This document shows, in pieces, positions 4,934 to 58,191 of a DNA stretch of 64,000 bases; position 1 is the first letter of the stretch; every line of letters starts with the position of its first letter. The position numbers and the translations under genes are program-made. The notes beneath the pieces are model-generated. The model was not told the origin of the DNA, did not search any database, and saw nothing but the letters and a program-made list of their open reading frames with translations. Origin of the DNA: an uncultured Thermotogae bacterium (GTDB taxonomy: Bacteria; Bipolaricaulota; Bipolaricaulia; UBA7950; UBA9294); the NCBI GenBank assembly GCA_964466035.1, contig CAYXLR010000007.1:25299-89298 (forward strand). Reading direction: 5' to 3'.

Positions 4934-5010
4934 GGGGGTGTAGCTCTAATTGGGAGAGCGCCCGCCTTGCACGCGGGAGGATGGCGGTTCGAATCCGCTC
5001 GCCTCCACCA
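4934..5010 (+). tRNA. tRNA-Ala (anticodon TGC), CCA encoded
   Basis: Cloverleaf readable by eye: acceptor GGGGGTG/CGCCTCC with G3:U70 Ala identity pair, anticodon loop CTTGCAC, T-arm GGCGGTTCGAATCCGCT, terminal ACCA. Confidence 0.93.
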
Positions 5011-5123
5011 GGACTACGGTACCAAGGTGTGTACACCCGCCGAACTCTTCTGGGGCGTCGCCCGCGAATACACTCACGACGAGGCCTGAGGGGTCAATAC
5101 CATTCCGGAACTGGACAGCCTAA

Positions 5124-5594
5124 GTGTTCGAAACAGAGAAGGAGATTCTGTCTGGGCTTCTTCGATTCTGCCTCAAGCAGCTTGTGGATGCTGGGCGAGT
5201 TGAAGAAGGCAACATAGTCGGCGCGTACCACGTGGACTTCGAGGCAACCGACGAGCTTGCGGGCAGCGGGCAAGCCGCGGCAACTACTCAGGACCGGCTG
5301 GGACATGCTGTTGTTCTATTTGATCCTGCGTGGGGTTCTGAAGCAGCTGCTTGGGCGATCCCCCACGAAGCATTTCACGTAGCTCAGTTCTGCTGCGGAG
5401 ATCTCGTGAACCTAGGAGGGGGCAGGAAGCTCTGGAAGGGAGAAGCATATGAGTCTCTGGCTTCCGATGATCCACATTATTCAGAGCAGCCATGGGAAGC
5501 CGAAGCATTCGCACACGATGAGGAGCTTCGCAGCACCATGAGGAGGCAGTACCCGGATCTCGACTCCCGCTTACAACAAGAGGAGGAGCACTGA
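5124..5594 (+). CDS. Small HExxH protein, ImmA/IrrE (COG2856)-like metallopeptidase candidate; start codon uncertain (GTG at 5124 is first possible)
   Basis: 156 aa; HEAFH zinc motif followed ~37 aa later by PWEAEAFAH, resembling the HExxH...ExEAxxFA layout of ImmA/IrrE peptidases. Confidence 0.5.
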   Translation: MFETEKEILSGLLRFCLKQLVDAGRVEEGNIVGAYHVDFEATDELAGSGQAAATTQDRLGHAVVLFDPAWGSEAAAWAIPHEAFHVAQFCCGDLVNLGGGRKLWKGEAYESLASDDPHYSEQPWEAEAFAHDEELRSTMRRQYPDLDSRLQQEEEH

Positions 5595-5640
5595 CTTCGG
5601 CAGGCCCACCCTGTCAGACAGAGATGAGGTGTCCCCGGGC

Positions 5641-5656
5641 TCTCCAATCGTTCACC
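5641..5656 (+). repeat. Island repeat copy A (TCTCCAATCGTTCACC)
   Basis: 16-nt core identical to copies at 7761 and 11143; lies 47 nt after stop of ORF 5124..5594. Confidence 0.7.
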
Positions 5657-5772
5657 TCGGCTTGATCCTGGACCATCCATGGGTAATTGCTCTGTGTTCT
5701 CAGTTGGTGTCTGCTGAGGGACTTGGCATAGACTAGCTCCACAGACAACGCGACAAACGGGAGCGGATCGGG

Positions 5773-7611
5773 ATGCCTGAGGCGAAGGAGTACCCACACA
5801 CATCTATCAAGTGGAGTGAGACTTACACGAAGACGGGGCTCGTCCGCTACGTCGTTGAGATTCGACATCTTGAGCTAAGCAAGTACCGTGTGATAAAGGA
5901 TCCTGATAGGGGAATCGCTCGCTCGAAGGCAGAGGCCCAGCTGAAGGGATGGCATCAGCAGTGGGAGAAAAGGGAGCACATCCGCAAGCAAAAGGAGGAT
6001 GCTGCGGAGAGAACGACGCTTGCCCAAGAGCGGCTCGCGCAAGTGCAAGGCATACTGCAGACCGGTCTCACAAGAAGGACCAAGATAACGGCTCGCTCGA
6101 AGTGGTACAAGTTCCCGGAGAAGGAGCCGCGGGAGCCCAGGAAGCCGAAGCTTCAGAAGGTCCCCAGGAAGCCATCGCCGAAGAGACGACCGCAAAAGCC
6201 GGAGCCAGATCCTGGCACGAAGCCGACAGAGACAGGCATAGAGTATCAAGTGAAGAGCGGGTTCCTGGCCTGGTTAGCTGGCGGCTCGCGCGCCAAGCGT
6301 GAGGCCGATGCCCGGCAGTGGTTCAGGAGCGATCTGACAGCATGGGAGACTGCCCAGAGGGAGGCGCTTGAGAAGTGGGGATCCCGCTGCCGTGAACTCG
6401 ATTCGGAGGATCAAGCTGCCCTTTCAGCGTGGGAGAAGCGAGTATCCGAAGTGCGGAAGAAGAATGCCGAGAAGCAAGAGACCTACGCGATCGAGAGAGA
6501 GAAGTGGGAAGAGAAAAGGAGCAGGTGGGCTGAGAAGAAAGAGTCGCATGAGGCAGCTGTACGGAGCCTTTTCGAGAACTATCGCGACAGGGAGCCGGAA
6601 GCAGTGTGCAGCTATCTATCAGCTGTTCTGGACGAAAGCTCCTACCCGGAGTGGATTCCCAGGGAACACGACATCTACTACAACACCGAGACGAAGACAG
6701 CAGTCGTAGATTATCGACTGCCAGCCCCATCCGATCTTCCGGCTATCAAGGAAGTCTCGTATGTCCAGGCGCGGGACGAGTTCACAGAAAAGCCCATACC
6801 CGTCCGGGATTGCGAGAAGCTGTACGACTCCGCTATCTACCAAGTGGCCCTCAGGACCTTGCACGAGTGCTTCGAGGCCACGGCCGACAGTGTTCTTACG
6901 TCGGTCGTGTTCAACGGCTATGTCAGGACCAAGGATGCGGCTACTGGCAAGGGGATACGCCCGTGCATTCTCTCTGTCCAGACCCAACGGGGCGAGTTCT
7001 CAGCAATCGATCTTGCATCTGTAGATCCCAAGGAGTGCGTCAGGAAACTGAGAGGTATCGGAAGCTCCAAACTGCATGCACTGGCGCCAATCGCACCGAT
7101 TCTGTCTTTCGACAAGGAAGACTCGAGGTTTGTCGAGGGTCGCGACATTCTGGGGCGTGTGAGCGAAGGCAGCAACCTTGCTGCCATGGACTGGGAGGAC
7201 TTCGAACATCTCATCCGGGGGGTCTTCGAGGGGTATTTCGCCGACATTGACGGGGATGTGAAAGTCACCCAGGCAAGCCGTGACAAGGGCGTCGATGCAG
7301 TGGTATTCGACCCAGATCCTGTTACTGGTGGGAAAATCATCATACAGGCGAAGCGCTACACGAATACGGTGTCCGTAGCAGCGGTCCGGGAGTTGCTCGG
7401 CACTGTCCAGAATGAAGGTGCAAAACTCGGCATCCTTGTCGCGACATCGCAGTTCGGACCGGATGCGATTCAGCTGGCTGCAGAGTGGCCGATTAACCTG
7501 ATTGACGGCGGCAACCTGCTGCACTTGCTGGCAGAGCAGGGCCGCAAAGCCTACATCGACATCCGGGAAGCGCGGGAGATTCTCAAGGAGCGAGAAGGCG
7601 AGGCGAGCTAG
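5773..7611 (+). CDS. Mrr-type (Mrr_cat, PD-(D/E)xK) restriction endonuclease domain fused to a ~440-aa coiled-coil/Lys-Pro-rich N-terminal region
   Basis: 612 aa; C-terminus WEDFEHLIRGVFEGY...DKGVDAVV...IIIQAKRY...VRELLG...GILVATSQF matches the Mrr catalytic-domain pattern (D...(D/E)xK = QAK); N-terminus is charged heptad-like plus PRKPKLQKVPRKPSPKRRPQKPEP. Confidence 0.75.
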   Translation: MPEAKEYPHTSIKWSETYTKTGLVRYVVEIRHLELSKYRVIKDPDRGIARSKAEAQLKGWHQQWEKREHIRKQKEDAAERTTLAQERLAQVQGILQTGLTRRTKITARSKWYKFPEKEPREPRKPKLQKVPRKPSPKRRPQKPEPDPGTKPTETGIEYQVKSGFLAWLAGGSRAKREADARQWFRSDLTAWETAQREALEKWGSRCRELDSEDQAALSAWEKRVSEVRKKNAEKQETYAIEREKWEEKRSRWAEKKESHEAAVRSLFENYRDREPEAVCSYLSAVLDESSYPEWIPREHDIYYNTETKTAVVDYRLPAPSDLPAIKEVSYVQARDEFTEKPIPVRDCEKLYDSAIYQVALRTLHECFEATADSVLTSVVFNGYVRTKDAATGKGIRPCILSVQTQRGEFSAIDLASVDPKECVRKLRGIGSSKLHALAPIAPILSFDKEDSRFVEGRDILGRVSEGSNLAAMDWEDFEHLIRGVFEGYFADIDGDVKVTQASRDKGVDAVVFDPDPVTGGKIIIQAKRYTNTVSVAAVRELLGTVQNEGAKLGILVATSQFGPDAIQLAAEWPINLIDGGNLLHLLAEQGRKAYIDIREAREILKEREGEAS

Positions 7612-7644
7612 GGCGCATGCCTCCAACCGCGTTTCAGCCGGAGG

Positions 7645-7684
7645 TTCTCCAAACGTTTACCTCGGGTCTCCCGTCTTGAGACGG
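7645..7684 (+). repeat. Island repeat copy B1 (degenerate: TTCTCCAAACGTTTACC) plus adjacent GTCTCC..TTGAGACG hairpin
   Basis: 34 nt after stop of 5773..7611; CCGTCTTGAGACGG hairpin also recurs after copy C (GTCTCCTTGAGAC at 11191). Confidence 0.6.
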
Positions 7685-7757
7685 CTGCTTCAGTAGGTAG
7701 TAGGTGGCAAGTAGCGTGTAGGAGAAGACTACAAGCCCAGGTGCACATCAGAACGAA

Positions 7758-7783
7758 GGTTCTCCAATCGTTCACCCAGGCTC
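7758..7783 (+). repeat. Island repeat copy B2 (GGTTCTCCAATCGTTCACCCAGGCTC)
   Basis: 26/26 nt identical, same orientation, to 11140..11165. Confidence 0.85.
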
Positions 7784-8097
7784 CATACGAACTGAAGGCT
7801 AACACCTTCCTCTTCTACGTTACCGCCCGATTTGGAAAACAGACTCGAGGTTCATGAATGAAGAACTACCTCGTACTTCCTTTATCCGTTGGGTCGTCAC
7901 ATCAGGCGGAGGTGGGAAGCACCCTCCTTGTCTACGAAGGGCGAGACAGATCTTCTAGGTTAGAGCGTGTTTTTCCTGAGAACCGGTTTATCCTATAATC
8001 CCCTCAAGGATGACGTGAGGATGGCCTGACGATCGCCTGTCGATGGGGGAATCTAGCGTCTACATGCAGCCCTTGCCGGCTGCTATGGGGGAGTGAG

Positions 8098-11070
8098 ATG
8101 CGGGTTTCGGTAGCGGATTGTGCAGGATGTTGCACGTCCTGGAAGTGCAGGCGTCTGGGCAATGCCTTTGGGTCCTTCCTCCTTGGTGCTTTCCTCTTTC
8201 TTGTCGTGGCTCCACCATCTCTGGCAACGTCGACAGGCTCATGGGTAGAGGTTAGCTTCAATGGGGAAGTAGTTGAAGTTCACACCGGCGCGCCCATCGG
8301 GTGGTTCTGCAAGATTAGAGTAGATCAAGTCATTCATGGGACTATTGATTGCAGCTATGTAGAGATCTGGCCAGTACATTGGGTATCCGCTGAAGGCCAA
8401 TTGTATGAGCCACCTACGGAAGGCGATAGGGTGGAGTTCTTCGGAGAAGTTGGCAAGGCCCCCGAGGTCGTTCGCTGTGCGCTTCGCCTCTCGGAGCCCA
8501 GCCACTACCTTAAGAAGACGGCGGGTGGAACGCCGCAGGCTTCATGCATCGACACTGTCATCACGGGAAAGGTCATCAGTGACGTCGCTTACTCGCCCCA
8601 CAGACGCTTCAGTCTTCGCATCAATGATGTCATCAAGAACGACAGCAATGCACCAAGCATTGCTACTGGGAATAGCATCCTTGTCGTTTTTTCCTCGGCG
8701 TTAGATCACGTCGTCGGACCGCTGCGAGTCGGAGACTGTGTGAGGATAGGTGGCACTTGGGGGAAAGGCGCCGCCCAGGAAGTACCTGGCTTGCGTTGCG
8801 ATCCCGCCACTTGTCGCGATCACTCTTTGGAGGAAGTCGCCTGCTCTTCGATAGCGGAAATCAGATTCCTAGGAACAGTAACGGAGCCGGACAATCAGAT
8901 GCTTGATGATGCTTTTGATTGCAAGGTGAGAATCAAGGAGGTGCTCGAGAAGCCATCCGAAATCGTAGTCAACCAGGGAGACGAGGTGCTCGTCCATATG
9001 TGGATCTGGTGTGGCCTGTGGCAAGGCGGGCTGACTGATCAGCCTGGCGGAAGTATCATTCCCGAAGGCTGGAATCCTGTACAAGGGGACAGCGTCGAAG
9101 TGTATGGGCGTCTCTCCGAAGAGTACACCAGCATCCCTGGGCATTCGCCAAGTTCGCGTTCAGTCGATCTATGTGGTTCAGACGGCTACTACATCATGCA
9201 GCTCTCTGGTGAGGGAGATCGAGACGGCGACGGCCTTCCCGATTGGAAAGAGGAAATAGCCGGAACGGACCCAGACGACCCAGACAGCGATGATGATGGG
9301 CTTTCAGATGGCCAGGAGCTGAACGGGTGGTCCGTGGGAGATCTGCCGGTTTATGACGCCTCATCCAATGGGAACCTCCCTCTAACTGCCTTAGTTGGAT
9401 ACTTGAATGTAGATGGCACATGGGGAGGAGGGTGGGATCTATATCCCGAAGACTTCGACGGAGACGGCGATCACGATCTTCAATTCCCACTTTTTCCACC
9501 ACCCTACCTTGAGCGAGATATCAATGGCGATGGTGTCTGCGATCTGGAGGATGAGGCCGCCATCTGCTACCTGACTCCGACAATCGTGAAGACAGATCCA
9601 AATAACGAAGACACAGACGGCGATCTGAGGATAGATGCTAATGATCCGTTTCCCACGACGTATGTTTCGAAGTGGGAGATCTGCGTTGAAGGGATCAAGA
9701 ACCTTTATGGAGTCCAGCGATACAATGGGCCGGCGCGCTCCGTGCAGACTTGCCTGCAAGCGTGGTATACCTACGGATACGCGATGGATCCACTGCAAGC
9801 CTACGAGGTTAGCGATCCCAAGCAGGTGAACCTTCGTTACGACTACGATGGAGATGGGATCTCGTTGGTCGCGGAGACCTTGTTCGAGACTCTTCCTGGT
9901 CTGGAGCGTCAACCGGGAGGAGAATTCTTCGATGTCAACCCAGTGGAACAAGCGCTGGACACCGACAAAGATGGGATCGATGATCTCAGCGAGATTCTCC
10001 TTCAGTTGAATCCGAATACGTATATCTATCAGCATAAGAAACTGGCGTTTGTTGAGATTGCGCCGATTGACTCGAAACTGGGTGTGGCGGGAACGGTATA
10101 CGTTGACATCGACGACGCTCTCGGATCATCCCTTGATGGTAAAGCCGACCCTTCATGGGTCACACTCTGGATTGGCACCAGCGTAAGCCTCGGGAAATCG
10201 ATTCTGCCATTCATTGATGGGGGATTCACCTATGTGCCGGTCTCAGTCTCAACTGAGGACGATAATTCTTTGCCCTCTGGATGGAATCTACAGCTGGCCG
10301 TATTCGACACGAGCGGTAGCTTTCACTTCAACCCAGCTTTTGCAGTCTCATACGATGTCCAGGTTGCGAAGTTCGATGTTCGTAGGGATGTTTTCGATGC
10401 CCTAGGATTAGATGCGCTAAGGGGAAGGATTACCCCGTTCTTCCCGTTCTTGCACGAGTCCGAGTTCCGAAACTGGCTGATGGATGCCTTAGAAGGCATC
10501 GCTCAAGGGGAGTATCCGGAAGGTGTTCGTCCCGCGGAATTCACTGGTACAGAGAGCGGCTTCGTCGTTACGGCAGTATGTCCTGTGGACATAGCGGTGA
10601 CGGATCCCGAAGGACGCCACATCACTAGGTCGGAGAGCACGATCCCGGGAGCCACATACGTGGAGGCCGATCTTGATGGTGATGACGATCCAGATGACCG
10701 AATTACGATCCCTTATCGCGTTGTAGGAGACTATCAGATACGCGTCTTCCCCGAACCGAGGGCAATGCGTGCGGACTCTTATACACTGAGCGTCTGGGCA
10801 GGTGGAGAGACAACGATTTTGGATGACGACGTTTTGGTACAAGACGTGCCTGAGTCCCCGTACATCGTGAATCTGTCCGAAGACGGGCTCATCCACACCG
10901 AAGAACCCGTTAGCACCACCGACAGCGGAAGGAGCCTGGGGGCAGGAGCGATCGCCGTGCTCGTTGTGGGGAGTCTAGGATTCGTCGCTGGTTGTGTTTG
11001 GGGTTTCCGGTACTTTCGTTCACGTACTGGATCTGGAGGAAAGAGCTCAGGAACCATCTGGCTCAAATGA
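8098..11070 (+). CDS. Large membrane-anchored surface protein with thrombospondin-type-3/dockerin-like Ca-binding Asp repeats
   Basis: 990 aa; N-terminal signal-like segment (FLLGAFLFLVVAPPSLA); DRDGDGLPDWKEEIAGTDPDDPDSDDDGLSDGQE, DFDGDGDHD, DINGDGVCDLEDE, DTDKDGIDDLSE repeats; C-terminal TM helix AIAVLVVGSLGFVAGCVWGF + basic tail. Confidence 0.7.
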   Translation: MRVSVADCAGCCTSWKCRRLGNAFGSFLLGAFLFLVVAPPSLATSTGSWVEVSFNGEVVEVHTGAPIGWFCKIRVDQVIHGTIDCSYVEIWPVHWVSAEGQLYEPPTEGDRVEFFGEVGKAPEVVRCALRLSEPSHYLKKTAGGTPQASCIDTVITGKVISDVAYSPHRRFSLRINDVIKNDSNAPSIATGNSILVVFSSALDHVVGPLRVGDCVRIGGTWGKGAAQEVPGLRCDPATCRDHSLEEVACSSIAEIRFLGTVTEPDNQMLDDAFDCKVRIKEVLEKPSEIVVNQGDEVLVHMWIWCGLWQGGLTDQPGGSIIPEGWNPVQGDSVEVYGRLSEEYTSIPGHSPSSRSVDLCGSDGYYIMQLSGEGDRDGDGLPDWKEEIAGTDPDDPDSDDDGLSDGQELNGWSVGDLPVYDASSNGNLPLTALVGYLNVDGTWGGGWDLYPEDFDGDGDHDLQFPLFPPPYLERDINGDGVCDLEDEAAICYLTPTIVKTDPNNEDTDGDLRIDANDPFPTTYVSKWEICVEGIKNLYGVQRYNGPARSVQTCLQAWYTYGYAMDPLQAYEVSDPKQVNLRYDYDGDGISLVAETLFETLPGLERQPGGEFFDVNPVEQALDTDKDGIDDLSEILLQLNPNTYIYQHKKLAFVEIAPIDSKLGVAGTVYVDIDDALGSSLDGKADPSWVTLWIGTSVSLGKSILPFIDGGFTYVPVSVSTEDDNSLPSGWNLQLAVFDTSGSFHFNPAFAVSYDVQVAKFDVRRDVFDALGLDALRGRITPFFPFLHESEFRNWLMDALEGIAQGEYPEGVRPAEFTGTESGFVVTAVCPVDIAVTDPEGRHITRSESTIPGATYVEADLDGDDDPDDRITIPYRVVGDYQIRVFPEPRAMRADSYTLSVWAGGETTILDDDVLVQDVPESPYIVNLSEDGLIHTEEPVSTTDSGRSLGAGAIAVLVVGSLGFVAGCVWGFRYFRSRTGSGGKSSGTIWLK

Positions 11071-11130
11071 GGGACTTCCGCCTCTCTGCGTACATGATCG
11101 AGCTGTAGCATCTGTTGAGGGTTTGTGTAA

Positions 11131-11571
11131 TTGGGCCCGGGTTCTCCAATCGTTCACCCAGGCTCTACCACGGCAAGCGCTGATGTCGAAGTCTCCTTGA
11201 GACGTCCGGTTGTGGTCTTTCCCGCGAAGGTTCCCTACGCTTGTTTCATCGTGTCCGAGGACGGTGGGTTCGAACGAGAGGCCGGGCCGTTCGTCAAGCT
11301 GTGGGCCGGGGTCTGCTCCGTGACCGGCTGGCGTTGCCGCTGTCCGCGCTGCGGCGGCAAGATGAAGCGGGCGTCCGCCCCCGACGAATCGTACAGACGT
11401 TCGAAACGGGCCGGCCCTCCTGCGGGGTCGGTGAGGATGGCCGGGCAATTGAGCACGCTTCGGAGTTCGGGAAGCGCCTATCGACAGGTCGAGATTACCC
11501 CGACCTACGATGTCTGCGCGGAGTGTGGCCATCGGTTCCGACGTCGAAACATCAAGTCGACCGTCGGCTAG
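11131..11571 (+). CDS. Hypothetical zinc-ribbon protein (true start unknown, TTG at 11131 is only the first possible)
   Basis: Two CxxC pairs ~60 aa apart (CPRCGG ... CAECGH); high-GC third positions; no recognisable family. Confidence 0.3.
   Translation: MGPGSPIVHPGSTTASADVEVSLRRPVVVFPAKVPYACFIVSEDGGFEREAGPFVKLWAGVCSVTGWRCRCPRCGGKMKRASAPDESYRRSKRAGPPAGSVRMAGQLSTLRSSGSAYRQVEITPTYDVCAECGHRFRRRNIKSTVG
11140..11165 (+). repeat. Island repeat copy C (GGTTCTCCAATCGTTCACCCAGGCTC)
   Basis: Identical 26-mer to 7758..7783; 70 nt after stop of 8098..11070; GC content rises shortly downstream. Confidence 0.85.
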
Positions 11572-11617
11572 GAAGCGATTCCCCAGGAGCTTGATAATTG
11601 CAGCGGTGTGACGGATC

Positions 11618-11643
11618 ATGGTGAATGAACGTTCATTCACCAT
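11618..11643. promoter_or_regulatory. Perfect 26-bp palindrome, candidate TetR operator overlapping the tetR start codon
   Basis: ATGGTGAATGAAC|GTTCATTCACCAT; explains why + and - strand ORFs both begin MVNERSFTM. Confidence 0.6.
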
Positions 11644-12259
11644 GACGAACCACGAGCCTCAAGAGACCCAGAACACCCGAGAGCGGATCCGCGAAGCGGC
11701 GGTCCGCGTCTTCTCCCGCGACGGCTTCGATCGATCGGCTGTGAAGTCGATCGCCGAGGAGGCCGGCGTCGCCGTCGGGTCGATCTACAACCACTTCCGC
11801 GACAAGGACGACCTGCTGATCTCGATCTTCGAGGACGAGTTCGACACCCGGATCTCATTCCTCGAGGAGATGAAGAGGGCGCAACTCCCGGTTCGCGATC
11901 AGGTGGAGCGTCTCCTCGCCGATCACTTCGCGAGGATCCGCGAGCACAAGGAGCTCGCCGAGCTCATGCTGTACGAGCGCTTCCACCGCGGCGGTCGCCT
12001 GCGCGAGCGGATCGTCCCGCTGCAGCGGAGAACCGTCGATCGGATCGCCGAGATCCTCCGCGCCGGGATCGCCGAGGGGTGGATCCGCCCCTGCCATCCG
12101 CAGGTCGTCGCCCAGGCGCTGCTCGATCTGGTGCAGACGATGACCGCCTGCCGGGTCCTCTCGGATCCGGACGAGGCCGACGAGATCTTCGGGGCGGCCC
12201 CGAAGGAGCTCGCCGACCTGATGTGGAAGGGACTCCGCCGAAGTGAAGACGACGAATAG
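11642..12259 (+). CDS. TetR/AcrR-family transcriptional regulator (start taken at ATG 11642; ATG 11618 inside palindrome is alternative)
   Basis: N-terminal HTH RERIREAAVRVFSRDGFDRSAVKSIAEEAGVAVGSIYNHFRDKDDL typical of TetR_N. Confidence 0.9.
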   Translation: MTNHEPQETQNTRERIREAAVRVFSRDGFDRSAVKSIAEEAGVAVGSIYNHFRDKDDLLISIFEDEFDTRISFLEEMKRAQLPVRDQVERLLADHFARIREHKELAELMLYERFHRGGRLRERIVPLQRRTVDRIAEILRAGIAEGWIRPCHPQVVAQALLDLVQTMTACRVLSDPDEADEIFGAAPKELADLMWKGLRRSEDDE

Positions 12260-54387: not shown

Positions 54388-55331
54388 TGGGACGGATTTT
54401 GCTCCGGCGGCTCGGCTTCCTCTTTCTGACCCTGCTTTTGACCTCGGCGCTGATCTTCTCGGCGACGCAGTTCCTCCCCGGCGACGTCGCGCGGGTGATC
54501 CTCGGCCGCGAGGCCGGCGAAGAGGCGGTCGCCGCGCTGCGCGGGGAGCTCGGCCTCGACCGCCCGGCGATCGTGCAGTACGGGACGTGGCTCGGCCGGT
54601 TCGTTCGCGGAGACTGGGGAAAGTCGTTCGGGACCGGCCTGCCCGTCCGTTCGCTGGTTGTTGAGCGGCTGCGCAACTCGCTGATGCTCGCGGTCGTGGC
54701 GCTCGTTCTTGCTGTGCCGTTCTCGATCCTCCTCGGCGTCTGGGCCGGCTTGCGGGAACACGGGATCGCCGATTCCGCGATCAGTCTCGCGAGCCTCGCC
54801 GTCGTCGGGCTGCCTGAGTTCGTCACCGGCGTCCTGCTGATCGAGCTGCTCGCCCACCGTTGGGACCTGCTGCCGGCGAGCTCGCCGATCGCGCCGGGGA
54901 CCGGCTTCTGGGAGGCGCTGCCGTCGCTGATCCTGCCTGCATTGACCGCGACGCTCGTCCTCCTCGCCTACGTCGCCCGGCTAACGCGGGCCGAGGTCGC
55001 CGAGCAGATGCGCCGTCCGTACGTCCGGACGGCGGTGCTGAAAGGACTGCCCCGGCGGACCGTCGTGTTCAAACACGTCCTGCGGAACGCCCTGTTGCCG
55101 ACGATCACCGTGGTCGCGATCAGCTTCGGCTGGTTGATCGGCGGGATCATCGTGATCGAGAACGTGTTCAACTACCCCGGGCTCGGACGGTTGCTGCTGT
55201 TCGCGATCGACCGGCGCGACGTCCCGCTGATGCAGGCGATCGCGATCGTCGTCGTGATCGGCGTCGTCCTCGCCAACCTGATCGCCGATTTGCTGTACGC
55301 AGCCGTCAACCCGCGGATCCGGTACAGGTAG
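54387..55331 (+). CDS. DppB/OppB-type ABC permease
   Basis: 314 aa from ATG 54387 (GTGATG overlap with upstream stop); MGRILLRRLGFLFLTLLLTSALIF start and NPRIRYR end are typical. Confidence 0.9.
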   Translation: MGRILLRRLGFLFLTLLLTSALIFSATQFLPGDVARVILGREAGEEAVAALRGELGLDRPAIVQYGTWLGRFVRGDWGKSFGTGLPVRSLVVERLRNSLMLAVVALVLAVPFSILLGVWAGLREHGIADSAISLASLAVVGLPEFVTGVLLIELLAHRWDLLPASSPIAPGTGFWEALPSLILPALTATLVLLAYVARLTRAEVAEQMRRPYVRTAVLKGLPRRTVVFKHVLRNALLPTITVVAISFGWLIGGIIVIENVFNYPGLGRLLLFAIDRRDVPLMQAIAIVVVIGVVLANLIADLLYAAVNPRIRYR

Positions 55332-55338
55332 GGGGAGG
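55233..55338 (+). repeat. Gene-end repeat copy 0 (authentic 3' end of dppB-like gene plus ~7 nt after stop)
   Basis: ...GTCGTCCTCGCCAACCTGATCGCCGATTTGCTGTACGCAGCCGTCAACCCGCGGATCCGGTACAGGTAGGGGGAGG. Confidence 0.85.
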
Positions 55339-55485
55339 ACAAGCCGGGCGTCCAGACCTAGCGGAAGCTGGATACGTAGACGGCCAAGGAACGAGCTGCG
55401 AGTGCGCAAGCGAGATCCGTCCTCGTGAGCGACTTCAATGCGTGATTACTTGCTGTGAAGGCAGGTTCTGTAGTACGTATCGTGC

Positions 55486-56550
55486 ATGGTGTTCGAAGAA
55501 CTGAGCGATGATGACCTCTTGACGGCGCTCAACGAGGTAGTCAGTTGCGTCGGAGTGAGAGACGAAGAGCCACTTGCGGATTTTCTGCAGTTTCTCGAGA
55601 GGAGCGATGCACATGGCTGTGCACAGGAGATCTCGGCCCGCCTTGGGTTGCCCGTCCACATCAGTCTGTCCTCTCTTGAAGCGGGTAACGCTGAAGGGTT
55701 CGGAAGCGTCTTGCTGGCGCCCAGAGGACGGCCGCAGCAGAGCATAGCAGCACGAATCGAAATGCCACAACATCCGCCGATGATCGGGACTCAAGGTCTT
55801 CAGGGTTACCCGGTCCGTATTCGAGTTAGCTCGAACTGCTACCAATCCCCGGAGACCTTCGTCGCGGTACTGGCCCACGAGCTCTCTCACCTTCTCCTAG
55901 CCTGCCTGTACCATCCGAAAGGAGACAGCGAGCTATACGTCGATCTTGTTCCCATAGCGCTTGGCTTTCGTGACATCATCCGAAGAGGCCGGAAGGTCAC
56001 ACGTGGAATCATGGACGGAACACTGGGCAGCACACAGACGACAACGTATGGCTATCTCACCGATTCCCAGTTCGAGTATGCCTGTGACCACGTAGAGGCC
56101 ATCTTGCAGGCCCATCGGAAATCGTACGATCACCTTGCGGAGGTACTGGCACAGGTCCAACGCAAGCTTCGCGTTGTTACGCGAAGGTTGACGGCGTTCA
56201 ATCGATACCTCAAGCACCTAGACAGGCACCCAGTCGGGAGGATGAAAGAAGCCGATGCTAGACACATGGTGCGATACCATGACACGGGCTATTGCCGTGA
56301 CTGGAACGCCGATATCATGTCAACCCGAACCGCTGTCCAGGACGCGAGGCTGTCTGCACGCAACCCGAATCGCTACACGCATGAAGAAGCCGACCTGATG
56401 CAGGGGCACATCCAAGCAATCGAGCTTGCATGTCAGAGACTGAACGCGGTTGATTCCAGTATCAGAGAAGATCTAAAGATCCTGAGGCATTACGTCCCTC
56501 TTCTTCGCCGATTGCAGGTCTGGGTATCCATACATCGCGTGCGCGATTGA
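55486..56550 (+). CDS. Orphan 354-aa protein with HExxH zinc-peptidase motif and helical C-terminal domain
   Basis: AVLAHELSHLLLACLYHP; no signal peptide or TM; lower GC than flanks; family not recognised. Confidence 0.55.
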   Translation: MVFEELSDDDLLTALNEVVSCVGVRDEEPLADFLQFLERSDAHGCAQEISARLGLPVHISLSSLEAGNAEGFGSVLLAPRGRPQQSIAARIEMPQHPPMIGTQGLQGYPVRIRVSSNCYQSPETFVAVLAHELSHLLLACLYHPKGDSELYVDLVPIALGFRDIIRRGRKVTRGIMDGTLGSTQTTTYGYLTDSQFEYACDHVEAILQAHRKSYDHLAEVLAQVQRKLRVVTRRLTAFNRYLKHLDRHPVGRMKEADARHMVRYHDTGYCRDWNADIMSTRTAVQDARLSARNPNRYTHEEADLMQGHIQAIELACQRLNAVDSSIREDLKILRHYVPLLRRLQVWVSIHRVRD

Positions 56551-56666
56551 CAGAAGCGAATGCGGTTCGAGATCCTGCGGTCAGAGCTTCTGAACGCGTG
56601 GGCACGTGGGTCTGGCGGAGGCATAAGCGTCGGCAGCAAGGTGCGGAATCCATCTCACGCTTTCCT

Positions 56667-56765
56667 CAAGCGATCGCGATCGTCGTTGTCCTCGCCAACC
56701 TCGTGGCCGATCTCCTGTACGCCGCCGTCAATCCACGGATTCGGTGCAAGGTGTACGAGGGGAGG
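56667..56765 (+). repeat. Gene-end repeat copy 1 (degenerate dppB 3' end; stop codon lost, 12-nt deletion)
   Basis: Encodes QAIAIVVVLANLVADLLYAAVNPRIRCK vs authentic QAIAIVVVIGVVLANLIADLLYAAVNPRIRYR. Confidence 0.8.
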
Positions 56766-56900
56766 CGTCCGCTTGCCCGGGAACCGCCTACGAGCTGAAT
56801 GGCCAGGAGGATTGACGAGTCGCTCGCGAGAATTCGCACCAAGATCAGCCACCGGCGCTGGATGAGGCGTCTATGTCGGTGGTCTGAGGCCAGGTGACAG

Positions 56901-57248
56901 CTACTCAGCCTGTTCATGCAGGACGCTGTGGAGCATGGGCGCGAGAGGAGGAAGGTCGTGCTGAATCGTCTCCCAGAGGATGTCAGCATCGATACCGAAG
57001 TACTCGTGAACGGCAAGATTGCGCAGTCCGCGCATCTTCTCCCAGGCGATCTCCGGATGCCGCTCTGCGATCTCATCAGGAACGAGGCGAGCTGCTTCAC
57101 CGATGACGATCAGGTTGCGGACCACCGCGTCGATGGTCTTCTCGTCTTCGTGGAACTGGGTGTGCGAGAGTCCCTTCGCGTAGCGCTCGATCTTCGCGAT
57201 CCCTCCAAGCATGTCCTCAATCCGGATACGCCAGTCCCTAGCGTGCAT
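56901..57248 (-). CDS. hepT: HepT (DUF86) RNase toxin of a type VII HepT/MntA toxin-antitoxin pair
   Basis: 115 aa; Rx4HxY motif RNLAVHEY; overlaps upstream mntA by 11 nt. Confidence 0.85.
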   Translation of the reverse strand: MHARDWRIRIEDMLGGIAKIERYAKGLSHTQFHEDEKTIDAVVRNLIVIGEAARLVPDEIAERHPEIAWEKMRGLRNLAVHEYFGIDADILWETIQHDLPPLAPMLHSVLHEQAE

Positions 57249-57528
57249 AGACAGCCTCGCTGAGAATCTTGTCTCGCAGCCGCGGATGCAGGGCCTTTCG
57301 GGTCACCAGGTCGACAGGACAGCCGAGAAGCTTCTCAAGGCGCTCCTTGACTTCGAGGAATGCGAAGAAACCCACTGGCTTTGCGAACTCTACGAGGATG
57401 TCTACGTCGCTGTCCGGCCCAGCTTCCTCGTGGACTACCGATCCGAACACGGCAAGAGACTGGACTCCAAGAGCTTGCAGCTCCTTCGTTTGTGTAGCTA
57501 GCAGCTTCAGCACTCCGTCCTGCTTCAT
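57238..57528 (-). CDS. mntA: MntA nucleotidyltransferase antitoxin
   Basis: 96 aa; GS-x(9-10)-DxD: LAVFGSVVHEEAGPDSDVDILVEF. Confidence 0.85.
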   Translation of the reverse strand: MKQDGVLKLLATQTKELQALGVQSLAVFGSVVHEEAGPDSDVDILVEFAKPVGFFAFLEVKERLEKLLGCPVDLVTRKALHPRLRDKILSEAVYAR

Positions 57529-57693
57529 TCAGCTCACCCTTCACCATTCTACCGGGATGTCGAGCTTCCACATAGGTTGGCAAGGCGCCTGGGCCTGGGT
57601 CCAGCATTGACCGCTTTCTGCGGCTGCGGCAGGGGCAAGTCCCGGAATCTCGGAGGCACCGGCTTCTCGAAAGCGTGGCAAGACTCCTGTCGG

Positions 57694-57795
57694 ATGATCG
57701 CCATCGGCGTGGTCGTCGGCGTCGTCTTCGCCAACCTGATCGCCGATCTACCGTACGCTGCCGTCAACCCGCGGATCCGGTACAGGTAAGGGAGG
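57694..57795 (+). repeat. Gene-end repeat copy 2 (dppB 3' end including stop)
   Basis: Encodes MIAIGVVVGVVFANLIADLPYAAVNPRIRYR*; last ~45 nt nearly identical to copy 0. Confidence 0.85.
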
Positions 57796-58191
57796 AGCCG
57801 ATCGGTTGCTCGTCGTGCGGCCGTTCGAGCACCGATCCTGTGATCCGGTTGCTTACTGGGAGCGAAGCGTTTGAAGAAAAATACCTCGACGGCGTGAGAC
57901 GGAATCGAGACGTGGGTGGGCAGCCTCTGGTCGAGTATCTGGAGCTTCAGGGCTGCTCCAATGCTAAGGAGGAACATGAACATCGTCTTGCGGATCACGA
58001 TAGGACCGACGGGCTGGAGCGTACGGGTCGACCTCGGGCCGGTGAAGCTCTCCTTCCGATAGATCCCGTCGGGCGGTCGATCCCATCTGGCGGCCTGGAA
58101 CCGGGTCGACGCACCGGGAACGCCGAATCGCGTCGCCTTGTCTCGATGGAATCGGATCGCTACGCTCCCGGCGGACACGGAGGTGGTTCCG

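Follow-up and report, generated by a model that had tools for sequence, protein, structure and literature searches.

The 64-kb stretch of DNA analysed here (hereafter the window), from an uncultured Thermotogae bacterium, contains an island of accessory genes beside a tRNA-Ala(UGC) gene, and a short direct repeat that recurs along this island is the subject of our analysis. The island runs from the end of the tRNA gene to approximately position 11,200, has a GC content of 54–57% in a genome of 65–70% GC, and holds every copy of the repeat (repeat family D1, up to 29 nt long). A 26-mer, GGTTCTCCAATCGTTCACCCAGGCTC, occurs exactly at 7758–7783 and 11140–11165 on the plus strand, with 0 occurrences expected from shuffled sequence, and a 16-nt core lies, on the plus strand only, at 5641, 7646 (2 mismatches), 7761 and 11143. 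Chance would supply 0.68 core copies at ≤3 mismatches and no shuffle gave 4; at the same threshold the rest of the 64 kb, outside 5638–11170, held no further copy. These counts bear out the initial annotation of this DNA, which had described two identical copies (7758 and 11140), a core at 5641 and a degenerate copy near 7645.

Read from the left, the locus begins with the tRNA-Ala(UGC) gene itself (4934–5010, +; recognized by ARAGORN, by Rfam and from its sequence), the putative attB-side chromosomal attachment gene, directly after whose 3′ end the arrays of relatives also begin. Its terminal letters, CCTCCACCA, include the proposed crossover core CTCCA (5003–5007) and the encoded CCA (5008–5010). 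The segment that follows (5011–5123, +) weakly resembles the compact left end found beside recombinase genes, as judged against the attL of a relative (L258), and we assign it with low confidence as a degenerate left end of the first cassette (CCAGG.., reverse strand ..SPGGGE). Cargo open reading frame (ORF) A (5124–5594, +) encodes 156 aa with a metalloprotease-like HExxH motif (PHEAFHVAQ); it had no match in Pfam or PADLOC and no DNA homologue among the 127 related loci described below. Repeat copy 1 (5638–5662, +), an a-type right-end half-site made of GGCTCTCCAATCGTTCACC and TCGGCT, has no CTCCA core after it. This first junction is decayed: by comparison with homologous cassettes in L230, L228 and L147, the canonical left end of the next cassette is absent, 70 unrelated nt standing in its place, so that the first two cassettes are now fused.

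The second cassette carries ORF B (5773–7611, +), a 612-aa Mrr-like type IV methyl-directed restriction enzyme (Pfam Mrr_cat, 3.6e-28; PADLOC mREase_IV, 3.8e-69), and ends in a two-copy right-end unit. Copy 2 (7643–7671, +; GGTTCTCCAAACGTTTACC followed by TCGGGTCTCC) is copy a of this unit and the inverted-repeat partner of a further copy, c. A spacer of variable sequence and fixed length follows (7672–7757, +), its last ~28 nt conserved and, on the reverse strand, belonging to the tail ORF discussed below. Copy 3 (7758–7785, +) is copy b, composed of a P-type half-site (7758–7776), CAGG and the core CTCCA (7781–7785); copies a and b start 115 nt apart here and 113 or 114 nt apart in 95 units elsewhere. 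The third cassette opens with a 'TAC' variant of the left end (TACGAACTGAAGGCTAAC.., 7786–7866, +), which includes inverted copy c, GGTTCATGAATGAAGAAC, at 7849–7866 and recurs directly after the tRNA-Ala gene of a related locus, L040. Its cargo, ORF D (8098–11070, +), is a 990-aa probable surface protein with DxDxDG repeats and a C-terminal membrane helix. Copy 4 (11140–11170, +), a short one-copy right end, consists of the half-site (11140–11158), CAGG, CTCTA (11163–11167, one change from CTCCA) and CCA (11168–11170). By its sequence we read it as the attR junction, carrying a displaced tRNA 3′ end and adjoining a chromosomal flank that is homologous to those of L040, L135 and L005.

Because the copies at 7643 and 7758 form a single conserved unit, the island counts three modules, not four. 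The statement that the motif has no similarity to the tRNA-Ala 3′ end was mistaken: the tRNA ends in ..CCTCCA(CCA) (5003–5010), copy 3 is followed by CAGG and CTCCA (7781–7785), copy 4 by CTCTACCA (11163–11170), and L040 has the same pattern. The 19-mer half-site also resembles the tRNA T-arm, with GGTTC, 18 nt and CTCCA in the motif versus GGTTC, 12 nt and CTCCA in the tRNA. The copies do lie shortly after stop codons (32–147 nt beyond the stops at 5594, 7611 and 11070), but the rule that one follows every gene is incidental to the window, since among 48 cassettes elsewhere the largest ORF shares the strand of the motif in 26 and runs against it in 22. The GTCTC..GAGAC sequences reported as hairpins exist at ~7667 and ~11191; the latter stands in chromosomal flank conserved in L040, where its stem is broken.

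L040 also locates the exchange point. Its uvrC flank shares 90% identity with that of the window, and the order uvrC, tRNA-Ala, island, zinc-ribbon gene, TetR is kept, with an island of 1.7 kb that holds an antisense 475-aa gene, cargo unlike the window's. Its tRNA-Ala boundary reads ..CGCCTCCA followed by TACGAACGGAAGGCTAAC.., and its island ends in ..TTCTCCAATCGTTCACCCGG and CTCCACCA before the flank; the window junction at 7781 reads ..CACCCAGG, CTCCA, TACGAACTGAAGGCTAAC.. To the left of CTCCA stands CGC in the tRNA versus GG in the element, and to the right TAC.. or CCAGAAC.. in the element versus CCA and flank. As the sequences differ on both sides of CTCCA, the exchange point falls inside it, and as different triplets follow CTCCA at the two ends of the L040 cassette (TAC versus CCA), insertion made no clean duplication.

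The repeat belongs to a large family. A first scan of genome contigs with a degenerate 16-mer was unspecific (~1000 chance matches expected); among the matches listed, flank matching identified six related loci in which CTCCACCA follows the motif; Candidatus Bipolaricaulota is the label of three and 'uncultured Thermotogae' that of two. Metagenome contigs, scanned with an 18-mer, then gave at least 119 loci. At ≤4 mismatches there are 315 copies in 127 loci (740 kb), clustered in arrays at tRNA-Ala and transfer-messenger RNA (tmRNA) genes, with at most seven copies per contig and nearly always on a single strand; CTCCACCA follows the motif in ~100 of the 315. The window sequence is itself present in at least 24 salt-marsh metagenome runs. 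Three scans of viral contigs (18-mer, copy c, b plus core) gave only chance or coding-sequence matches, so the family appears to be absent from IMG/VR. ARAGORN called 12 tRNA-Ala genes (11 UGC, 1 CGC) and 4 tmRNA genes in the loci, and in 13 of 17 tRNA-Ala or tmRNA genes, the window's tRNA-Ala included, the conserved left end with inverted copy c stands directly after ..CCTCCA(CCA). Motif strand and tRNA strand agree in all tRNA- or tmRNA-linked arrays, and the two kinds of target share the ending GGTTCGAnTCC......CTCCACCA. From these matches, the array system appears to be widespread in uncultured sediment bacteria.

Doubly bounded cassettes (n = 54) measure 216–9225 bp with a median of 2359 bp, and 30 of them contain a single ORF of at least 150 aa. 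Because the cargo occurs in both orientations, the repeat is part of the cassette and not of a gene's 3′ end. Cargo is highly diverse (141 Pfam families in 116 of the ORFs examined) and includes the defence proteins mREase IV, PARIS AriA, Gabija GajA, Old, IetA, Mads and PrimPol, as well as large beta-propeller or beta-helix surface proteins and transporter operons. ORF clustering found neither a recurring gene family nor a recurring transposase inside the cassettes, and a regular expression for the tyrosine-recombinase box found none in the 1527 ORFs of the 127 loci (740 kb of arrays and flanks); among the top 25 Pfam families listed for the window's housekeeping genes there was no recombinase, a weak negative. 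Cassettes have been reshuffled between genomes: homologues of the Mrr cassette, 75–81% identical in nucleotide sequence, occur in L230, L147 and L228, each within an array, with different neighbours and a canonical left end, and with a two-copy right end in L147 and a one-copy right end in L230. The arrays at tRNA-Ala and tmRNA genes, the CTCCA crossover and the varied neighbours of the Mrr cassette support the original suggestion of att-like sites that bound serially captured modules in a cassette array. The accompanying description of these sites as scars does not fit, the half-sites being conserved and functional-looking.

Population data for the locus consist of assembler contigs from 12 runs (2019–2020), in which rare forms are hidden; most of the contig joints reported arise where conserved units of other arrays cross-match. 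In one contig 5002 is joined to 7781 (5 ambiguous letters), so that the tRNA directly precedes the third cassette, and the sequence immediately past CTCCA at 5007 and 7785 has several alternative continuations. Contig depth for run X1 is 32–35 over the cassettes versus 45–46 over the flanks; for X3 it is 31.8 over cassettes A–B versus 47 over the left flank, while the third cassette shares a contig with the right flank (41.1). These salt-marsh contigs point to exchange at CTCCA and to varying cassette content, and are suggestive only.

Across the family, junctions share an architecture of ~240 nt: copy a, 113/114 nt, copy b, CAGG, CTCCA and a left end with inverted copy c. We found ~95 two-copy junctions with the copies 113 or 114 nt apart. 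Copy a has the consensus GAGTTCTCCAAaCGTTCACC TCGGgTCTCC, followed by ~70 variable nt and TTCAGGCCCAGGAGCAGgTCAGAACGAA; copy b has the consensus GGTTCTCCAATCGTTCACC, followed by CaGG CTCCA CCA; and the left end reads GAactggctgtAAcGctgTtCCtgTCTgcGTTTcc...caGAccCGAgGTtCATGAATGGAGAACc, its final 19 nt being inverted copy c. With their TCGGGTCT extensions, a and c make 26-nt imperfect inverted repeats. By arithmetic (5+62+19+4 = ~114) the a–b unit looks like a right end (a plus TCTCC) and a cargo-less long left end fused to b, and its last 26 nt resemble the c region. Compact junctions also occur, composed of b (19), 4 nt, CTCCA, 5–6 nt and c′ (19), ~52 bp in all, with 14–17 of 19–23 positions symmetric. 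Terminal inverted repeats were not found at the cassette ends.

Several other identities for parts of the junction were tried and rejected. The motif with CTCCACCA cannot be a tRNA or tmRNA 3′ half, as no T-stem can form. Tn7-like ends and a 5-bp or 8-bp target duplication fail for want of terminal TGT/ACA or inverted termini and because of the unequal triplet after CTCCA in L040. Reading copy c as a shared ribosome-binding site with start codon (GAGG..ATG) does not agree with cargo that is often antisense and downstream frames that are unconserved. Candidate RNA structures (an acceptor stem GGAGTT/GGCTCC-ACCA closing the a–b unit, a hairpin after copy a, and b–c pairing) showed no consistent fold or compensatory changes.

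A candidate enzyme came from the largest cassette, in L143. This autonomous-looking element encodes a large serine recombinase (LSR), a D5-type primase-helicase and an IS200-like Y1 protein, and ends in an a–b right end followed by CGGG CTCCA. Its LSR gene comprises a resolvase domain, a frameshift, and then Recombinase and zinc-ribbon domains (Resolvase, Recombinase, Zn_ribbon_recom); it lies antisense at the left end, and its frame crosses a compact left end and then the core to enter a tRNA-Ala fragment (array strand, ..GTTCGAATCCGCTCGCCTCCA CCCGA GGGGACTGATTGTAGAACC). A second LSR, in L239, is 45% identical and N-terminally truncated, and lies in the equivalent place, after the right end of a different cassette (b CCGG CTCCA CCAAGC GTGACTCCAGTAAGAACC). 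Protein searches returned ~36 close relatives of 518–578 aa with all three LSR domains, one of them annotated from a Bipolaricaulota metagenome-assembled genome; the matches in PDB were the TP901-1, SPbeta and A118 integrases. LSR genes and att sites are linked in every context read (8 of 8): the 3′ end of the gene overlaps copy c, followed by 5–6 nt, CTCCA and then a tRNA-Ala gene (L254 and L256, GGC; L257, CGC; L258, UGC), a tRNA-Ala fragment (L143, L255, L259) or an array junction (L239). L258 has the gene order of the window's left flank (PAP2, aminotransferase, M42 peptidase, UvrC, tRNA-Ala(UGC)) at ~75% nucleotide identity, so that in this relative the window's uvrC–tRNA-Ala locus holds an LSR element; an intact LSR of 550 aa (P0012) is encoded at the syntenic locus.

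Further features of these elements deserve mention. The Y1 (HUH) transposase homologue of L143 (287 aa, 5141–6004) lies inside the recombinase element, and weaker relatives occur near motif copies in L082 and L208. At 11790–11870 of L143 (array strand), a tRNA-Ala-like fragment of ~55 nt, with an anticodon-arm-like hairpin, a T-arm and an acceptor 3′ strand, adjoins the recombinase gene; ARAGORN calls no tRNA there, and the fragment may be a displaced or element-borne partial tRNA. In the autonomous elements the LSR gene adjoins a conserved module, in which one or two TPR proteins and two small ORFs accompany an antisense HTH protein and a Cdc6/NB-ARC-like AAA ATPase (L257, 4823–10956; L258, 221–3953; L255, 2454–9689; L256, 1741–7076). 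The cargo of these elements varies and includes BREX genes (L257), a type I restriction subunit (L255) and Cas3/Cas5 (L254). L256 also has a Phage_integrase gene, the only one observed, at ~4 kb from its att site.

The right ends also carry a coding signal. On the reverse strand, 57 nt from the core through b to a conserved TTCA encode GGA(W/G)VNDWRTFVL(S/T)CSWA and a stop. Across 118 distinct right ends (loci L122–L240), variation falls at synonymous positions: Leu is encoded by CTG, CTC, TTG and CTT, Ser by TCC, TCG, TCT and TCA, and Ala by four codons, and at one Ser/Thr position Ser is written both AGC and TCC. The stop stands at one fixed codon in 109 of the 118 (TGA 87, TAG 17, TAA 5), and third-position entropy exceeds that of the rest by 0.355 bits (permutation p = 0.011). 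The tail ORF thereby shows signs of purifying selection at the level of sequence. The LSR frame continues into this tail without a shift of phase in L239 (3442–3560) and in compact junctions with LSR remnants (L019, L157, L125, L171 and L181). LSR proteins beside a tRNA end instead in ..SGGA or ..GGERIRT.., encoded by the antisense tRNA. As the tails differ beside a tRNA and at a right end, the C-terminus of the recombinase is set by whatever sequence lies across the crossover. The window's own tail ORF (7729–7785, −) has lost its stop in copy b.

We consider it probable, on comparative grounds, that the repeat is the element-side half-site of cassettes that insert at tRNA-Ala and tmRNA genes, most likely through an LSR supplied in trans. 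Serine-integrase attP sites span ~50 bp and consist of two imperfect inverted half-sites around a short crossover, with attB half-sites ~5–6 bp shorter. In our proposal, GGTTCTCCAATCGTTCACC would be the P-type half-site at the cassette right end, and b, core and compact c together (GGTTC-18 nt-CTCCA-19 nt-GAACC, a ~52-bp imperfect palindrome) would be attP-like; the T-arm and acceptor end of the tRNA or tmRNA (GGTTC-12 nt-CTCCA), six bases shorter, would be the attB half-site. Insertion would take place in the last bases of tRNA-Ala and tmRNA genes of a Bipolaricaulota-like lineage, at the core CTCCA before CCA, with the product tRNA-CTCCA-c..element..b-CTCCA-flank. Each insertion would fall between the tRNA and the earlier content and push older cassettes outward, building an array of the form tRNA - [left end, cargo, right end - CAGG - CTCCA] x n - flank. 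An LSR of one clade would be the most likely enzyme, its gene occupying the left end of autonomous elements in antisense orientation and its final codons extending across c and the core; cassettes that lack a recombinase would move through this LSR in trans or together with a neighbouring element. On this account that clade would perform the catalysis and the window's cassettes may still be mobile. The initial annotation had offered a protein-binding site as an alternative, which is compatible, the recombinase being the protein. For the third cassette, the predicted circle junction is ..TCGTTCACCCAGGCTC(T/C)A followed by TACGAACTGAAGGC.., and the predicted empty site ..CACCCAGGCTCCA followed by CCACGGCAAGCG..; a circle of the first two cassettes and a joint of the tRNA with TACGAACTGAAGG are also predicted.

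A number of observations weigh against this proposal. Tblastn found no LSR gene in the 64-kb window, so the window's cassettes would be non-autonomous members, and the array is partly decayed (no core or left end at the first junction, a CTCTA core at the last, a lost tail stop); by sequence it appears to be three recombinase-less, non-autonomous, partly decayed cassettes. Only two LSR genes lie inside motif-bearing arrays (L143, L239), and right ends of the tRNA-adjacent LSR elements (L254–L256) did not appear within the DNA searched. The contig joint between 5002 and 7781 has 21 nt on its short side and a depth of 2, and the assembler contigs of the 12 runs contained no excised circle or empty-site junction. 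Copy c, moreover, stands 61–76 nt from the core, almost always 62–63, and not 5–6 nt, in 69 of the 71 junctions with a detectable c (for 59 of these 69 long left ends, its start is 62 or 63 nt past the core). Such a distance is intolerable for a textbook LSR attP, so that simple attP x attB recombination cannot be the whole mechanism.

The decay raises the possibility that the array is a fossil, the inert remains of LSR elements whose recombinase modules were deleted, with nothing now moving in this genome. This possibility concerns present activity only and does not bear on the identity of the repeats; we think it unlikely while taking it seriously. The decayed first junction, the CTCTA core, the lost tail stop and the absence of an LSR from the 64 kb all favour it, as does the main strain carrying the same array in many runs; against it stand the strong conservation of half-sites and spacings over more than 100 cassettes with unrelated cargo, the signs of purifying selection on the tail ORF, and the hints of within-sample differences in cassette content.

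The distant copy c could instead belong to a distinct lifestyle of the recombinase-less cassettes, in which serine-integrase chemistry is reversed and coupled to a recombinase that acquires a new C-terminus through recombination, an extension that we regard as doubtful. The long left end would then set a B′-like sequence at the core, with P′ copy c 62–63 nt off; the tRNA plus a cassette would restore an attB-like entry site, and cassette–cassette junctions would be attR-like. For cassettes situated between the tRNA and an LSR element, excision would need only integrase (attP x attB), and insertion would take integrase with a directionality factor (attL x attR). The LSR ORF, crossing the crossover, would take its last ~17 residues from the tRNA when integrated (..GGERIRT.. 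or ..GGA and a stop) and from a right end when circular or behind another cassette (..GGAWVNDWRTFVLSCSWA and a stop), which would make the conserved right-end tail a possible built-in sensor of integration state.

That the sites are genuine recombination sites served by another enzyme, perhaps a tyrosine recombinase of the host (resembling Xer or an integron integrase) or one of unknown kind, with LSR elements as mere passengers at a hot spot, strikes us as improbable. Nearly all cassettes lack a recombinase, most left ends place c too far away for a classical LSR attP, and a, b and c at fixed distances resemble the arm-type sites of lambda-like tyrosine integrases. Opposed to this are the LSR genes of one clade, 8 of 8 of which abut and read through c and the core, the compact junction, whose ~52-bp imperfect palindrome is what an LSR would lead one to expect, and the 0 tyrosine-recombinase signatures in 740 kb, the Phage_integrase of L256 lying ~4 kb from its att site.

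A transcribed RNA element of the island genes (a 3′ UTR, terminator or small RNA with a tRNA-like CCA end), the other alternative raised at the outset, is very improbable. In the window the motif does follow each of three genes on the coding strand, and a hairpin can be drawn for the b region (GGAGC..GAACGA..TCGTTC..GCTCC, then ACCA). However, Rfam gave no match at E ≤ 1 other than the tRNA, no terminator-like site was found on the plus strand, and RNAalifold on 80 aligned junction units returned no consensus structure. Pairs in ungapped a–b units are invariant or broken, not compensated, single-sequence folds agree only on the invariant palindrome GAACGA..TCGTTC in b, cargo orientation is mixed, and the pattern of variation fits reverse-strand coding. 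We likewise give almost no credence to a dispersed element resembling repetitive extragenic palindromes or miniature inverted-repeat transposable elements (MITEs), or to transposon ends with a CTCCA(CCA) target-site duplication: a and c do form 26-nt imperfect inverted repeats around a ~240-nt unit and CTCCA flanks every cassette, but 0 copies lie elsewhere in the 64 kb, the copies cluster in arrays at tRNA-Ala and tmRNA genes and all share the strand of the tRNA, the presence of only the right half of the unit at the tRNA and only the left half at the array end fits recombination and not MITE insertion, TAC and CCA differ after CTCCA on the two sides in L040, and terminal inverted repeats and a recurring transposase are both lacking.

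Under the preferred reading, in which an LSR moves the cassettes, the nearest known counterparts are the ssrA-specific genomic islands (ssrA-GIs) of Dehalococcoides (recombinase DsiB; McMurdie et al. 2011, PMC3146451). These tandem islands lie downstream of a tmRNA gene and have direct repeats of the 3′ end of that gene at their boundaries; a CcrB-like LSR is encoded on the reverse strand beside attL, its ORF running through attL to a stop outside the island, and some islands without an integration module were termed cis-mobilizable, their movement being proposed to depend on an LSR in trans or on a neighbour (PMC3146451). The family described here is alike in arrangement, from which the likeness is drawn, with tandem islands at tmRNA, an antisense LSR overlapping attL and recombinase-less members. 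It differs in its targets, mainly tRNA-Ala (UGC, CGC, GGC) plus tmRNA, in a core of only ~5–8 nt, in its ~240-nt three-copy junctions, in mostly single-gene cassettes of ~1–4 kb, the great majority without a recombinase, as opposed to islands of 10–30 kb, and in an accessory module of TPR, HTH and Cdc6-like ATPase proteins in place of DsiA, RecF, ParB and Mom.

A second parallel is the staphylococcal cassette chromosome (SCC), where the Ccr recombinases (CcrAB/CcrC) of a neighbouring cassette have been shown experimentally to excise and circularise recombinase-less tandem SCC-like cassettes (PMC11470126). On the preferred reading the two systems have in common an LSR, a target at the 3′ end of a single conserved gene, composite arrays with att repeats between the cassettes, and recombinase-less cassettes of which many, in SCC, carry anti-phage defence genes. 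SCC differs in its target (rlmH, not a tRNA gene), its much larger cassettes, its phylum and its experimentally proven mobility; to our knowledge the split half-sites, with c 62–63 nt from the core, have no SCC counterpart. With an LSR in trans as the probable enzyme, the logic would be SCC-like and not integron-like. Dense arrays of mostly single-gene, recombinase-less cassettes with a conserved site at one end, a fixed entry point and a recombinase encoded outside do recall integrons. Yet no tyrosine-recombinase box was found in the 1527 ORFs as a sign of IntI, with attI likewise not found and uvrC and a tRNA gene as the neighbours of the entry point; a and b are direct, sequence-conserved repeats with no attC-type R″/L″-L′/R′ hairpin or GTTRRRY boxes at the boundary; and ORF orientation is not uniform (26 on the motif strand, 22 opposite), so that cassette genes would need their own promoters. 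Integrons are thus an analogy only.

Tycheposons of Prochlorococcus (Hackl et al., bioRxiv 10.1101/2020.12.28.424599) likewise carry cargo, target specific tRNA genes and the tmRNA gene and pile up in tandem into genomic islands, and a minority use an LSR. They carry an integrase in cis (mostly a lineage-specific tyrosine recombinase), a replication module and ~40-nt partial tRNA flanks (10.1101/2020.12.28.424599). By contrast, the elements described here are overwhelmingly integrase-less and have in common a non-tRNA half-site motif; a cis integrase with replication genes is absent from the window and from nearly all cassettes, and only L143 combines an LSR with a D5 primase. Cis-mobilizable elements (CIMEs) of the accretion–mobilisation type (ICESt1 family) involve tyrosine integrases, the ends of protein-coding genes and one or two large elements. 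They resemble the present cassettes in having att sites without recombination genes, in tandem accretion at one att site and in movement with or by an autonomous neighbour, and differ from the long arrays of small cassettes found here. Two of the characters of LSR islands were found in the family, the recombinase (L143, L239 and ~36 relatives, all outside the window) and site-specific 3′-end insertion with direct repeats of the crossover (the window, L040 and 13 of 17 junctions). The family is best filed as a new, fine-grained form of LSR-driven tandem islands at a tRNA or tmRNA gene.

If this reading is correct, an uncultured phylum that is common in salt-marsh, hypersaline and marine sediments would keep integron-like arrays of small, swappable single-gene cassettes, whose cargo spans large surface proteins and defence genes of the restriction, PARIS, Gabija and Old types, and the principle of SCC and the ssrA islands would extend to a much finer grain. 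The half-site, the CTCCA core and the LSR clade would together form a searchable signature for accessory and defence genes in metagenomes, and would supply natural LSR–att pairs with a universal target, the acceptor end of tRNA-Ala. The antisense tail across the att site would also make the overlap of recombinase and attL in Dehalococcoides, a long-standing observation, directly testable.

Finally, three features lie near or apart from the array. A second low-GC island (58–60% GC) at ~55000–58000 contains a HepT-like toxin gene (56901–57248, −) and several small ORFs; the repeat is absent from it, and none of the six ORFs scanned in it matched a recombinase. After the array, a small CxxC..CxxC zinc-ribbon gene is present once in the window (11241–11594) and as two tandem paralogues in L040 (3256–3576 and 3658–4017, both −). 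Beyond it, a TetR-family gene (11618–12259) precedes an MMPL transporter gene and has the same N-terminus, MVNERSFTM, in L040. A perfect 30-nt palindrome (TCATGGTGAATGAAC followed by GTTCATTCACCATGA, 11616–11645) overlies the start codon of this TetR-family gene and is probably the repressor's own operator.

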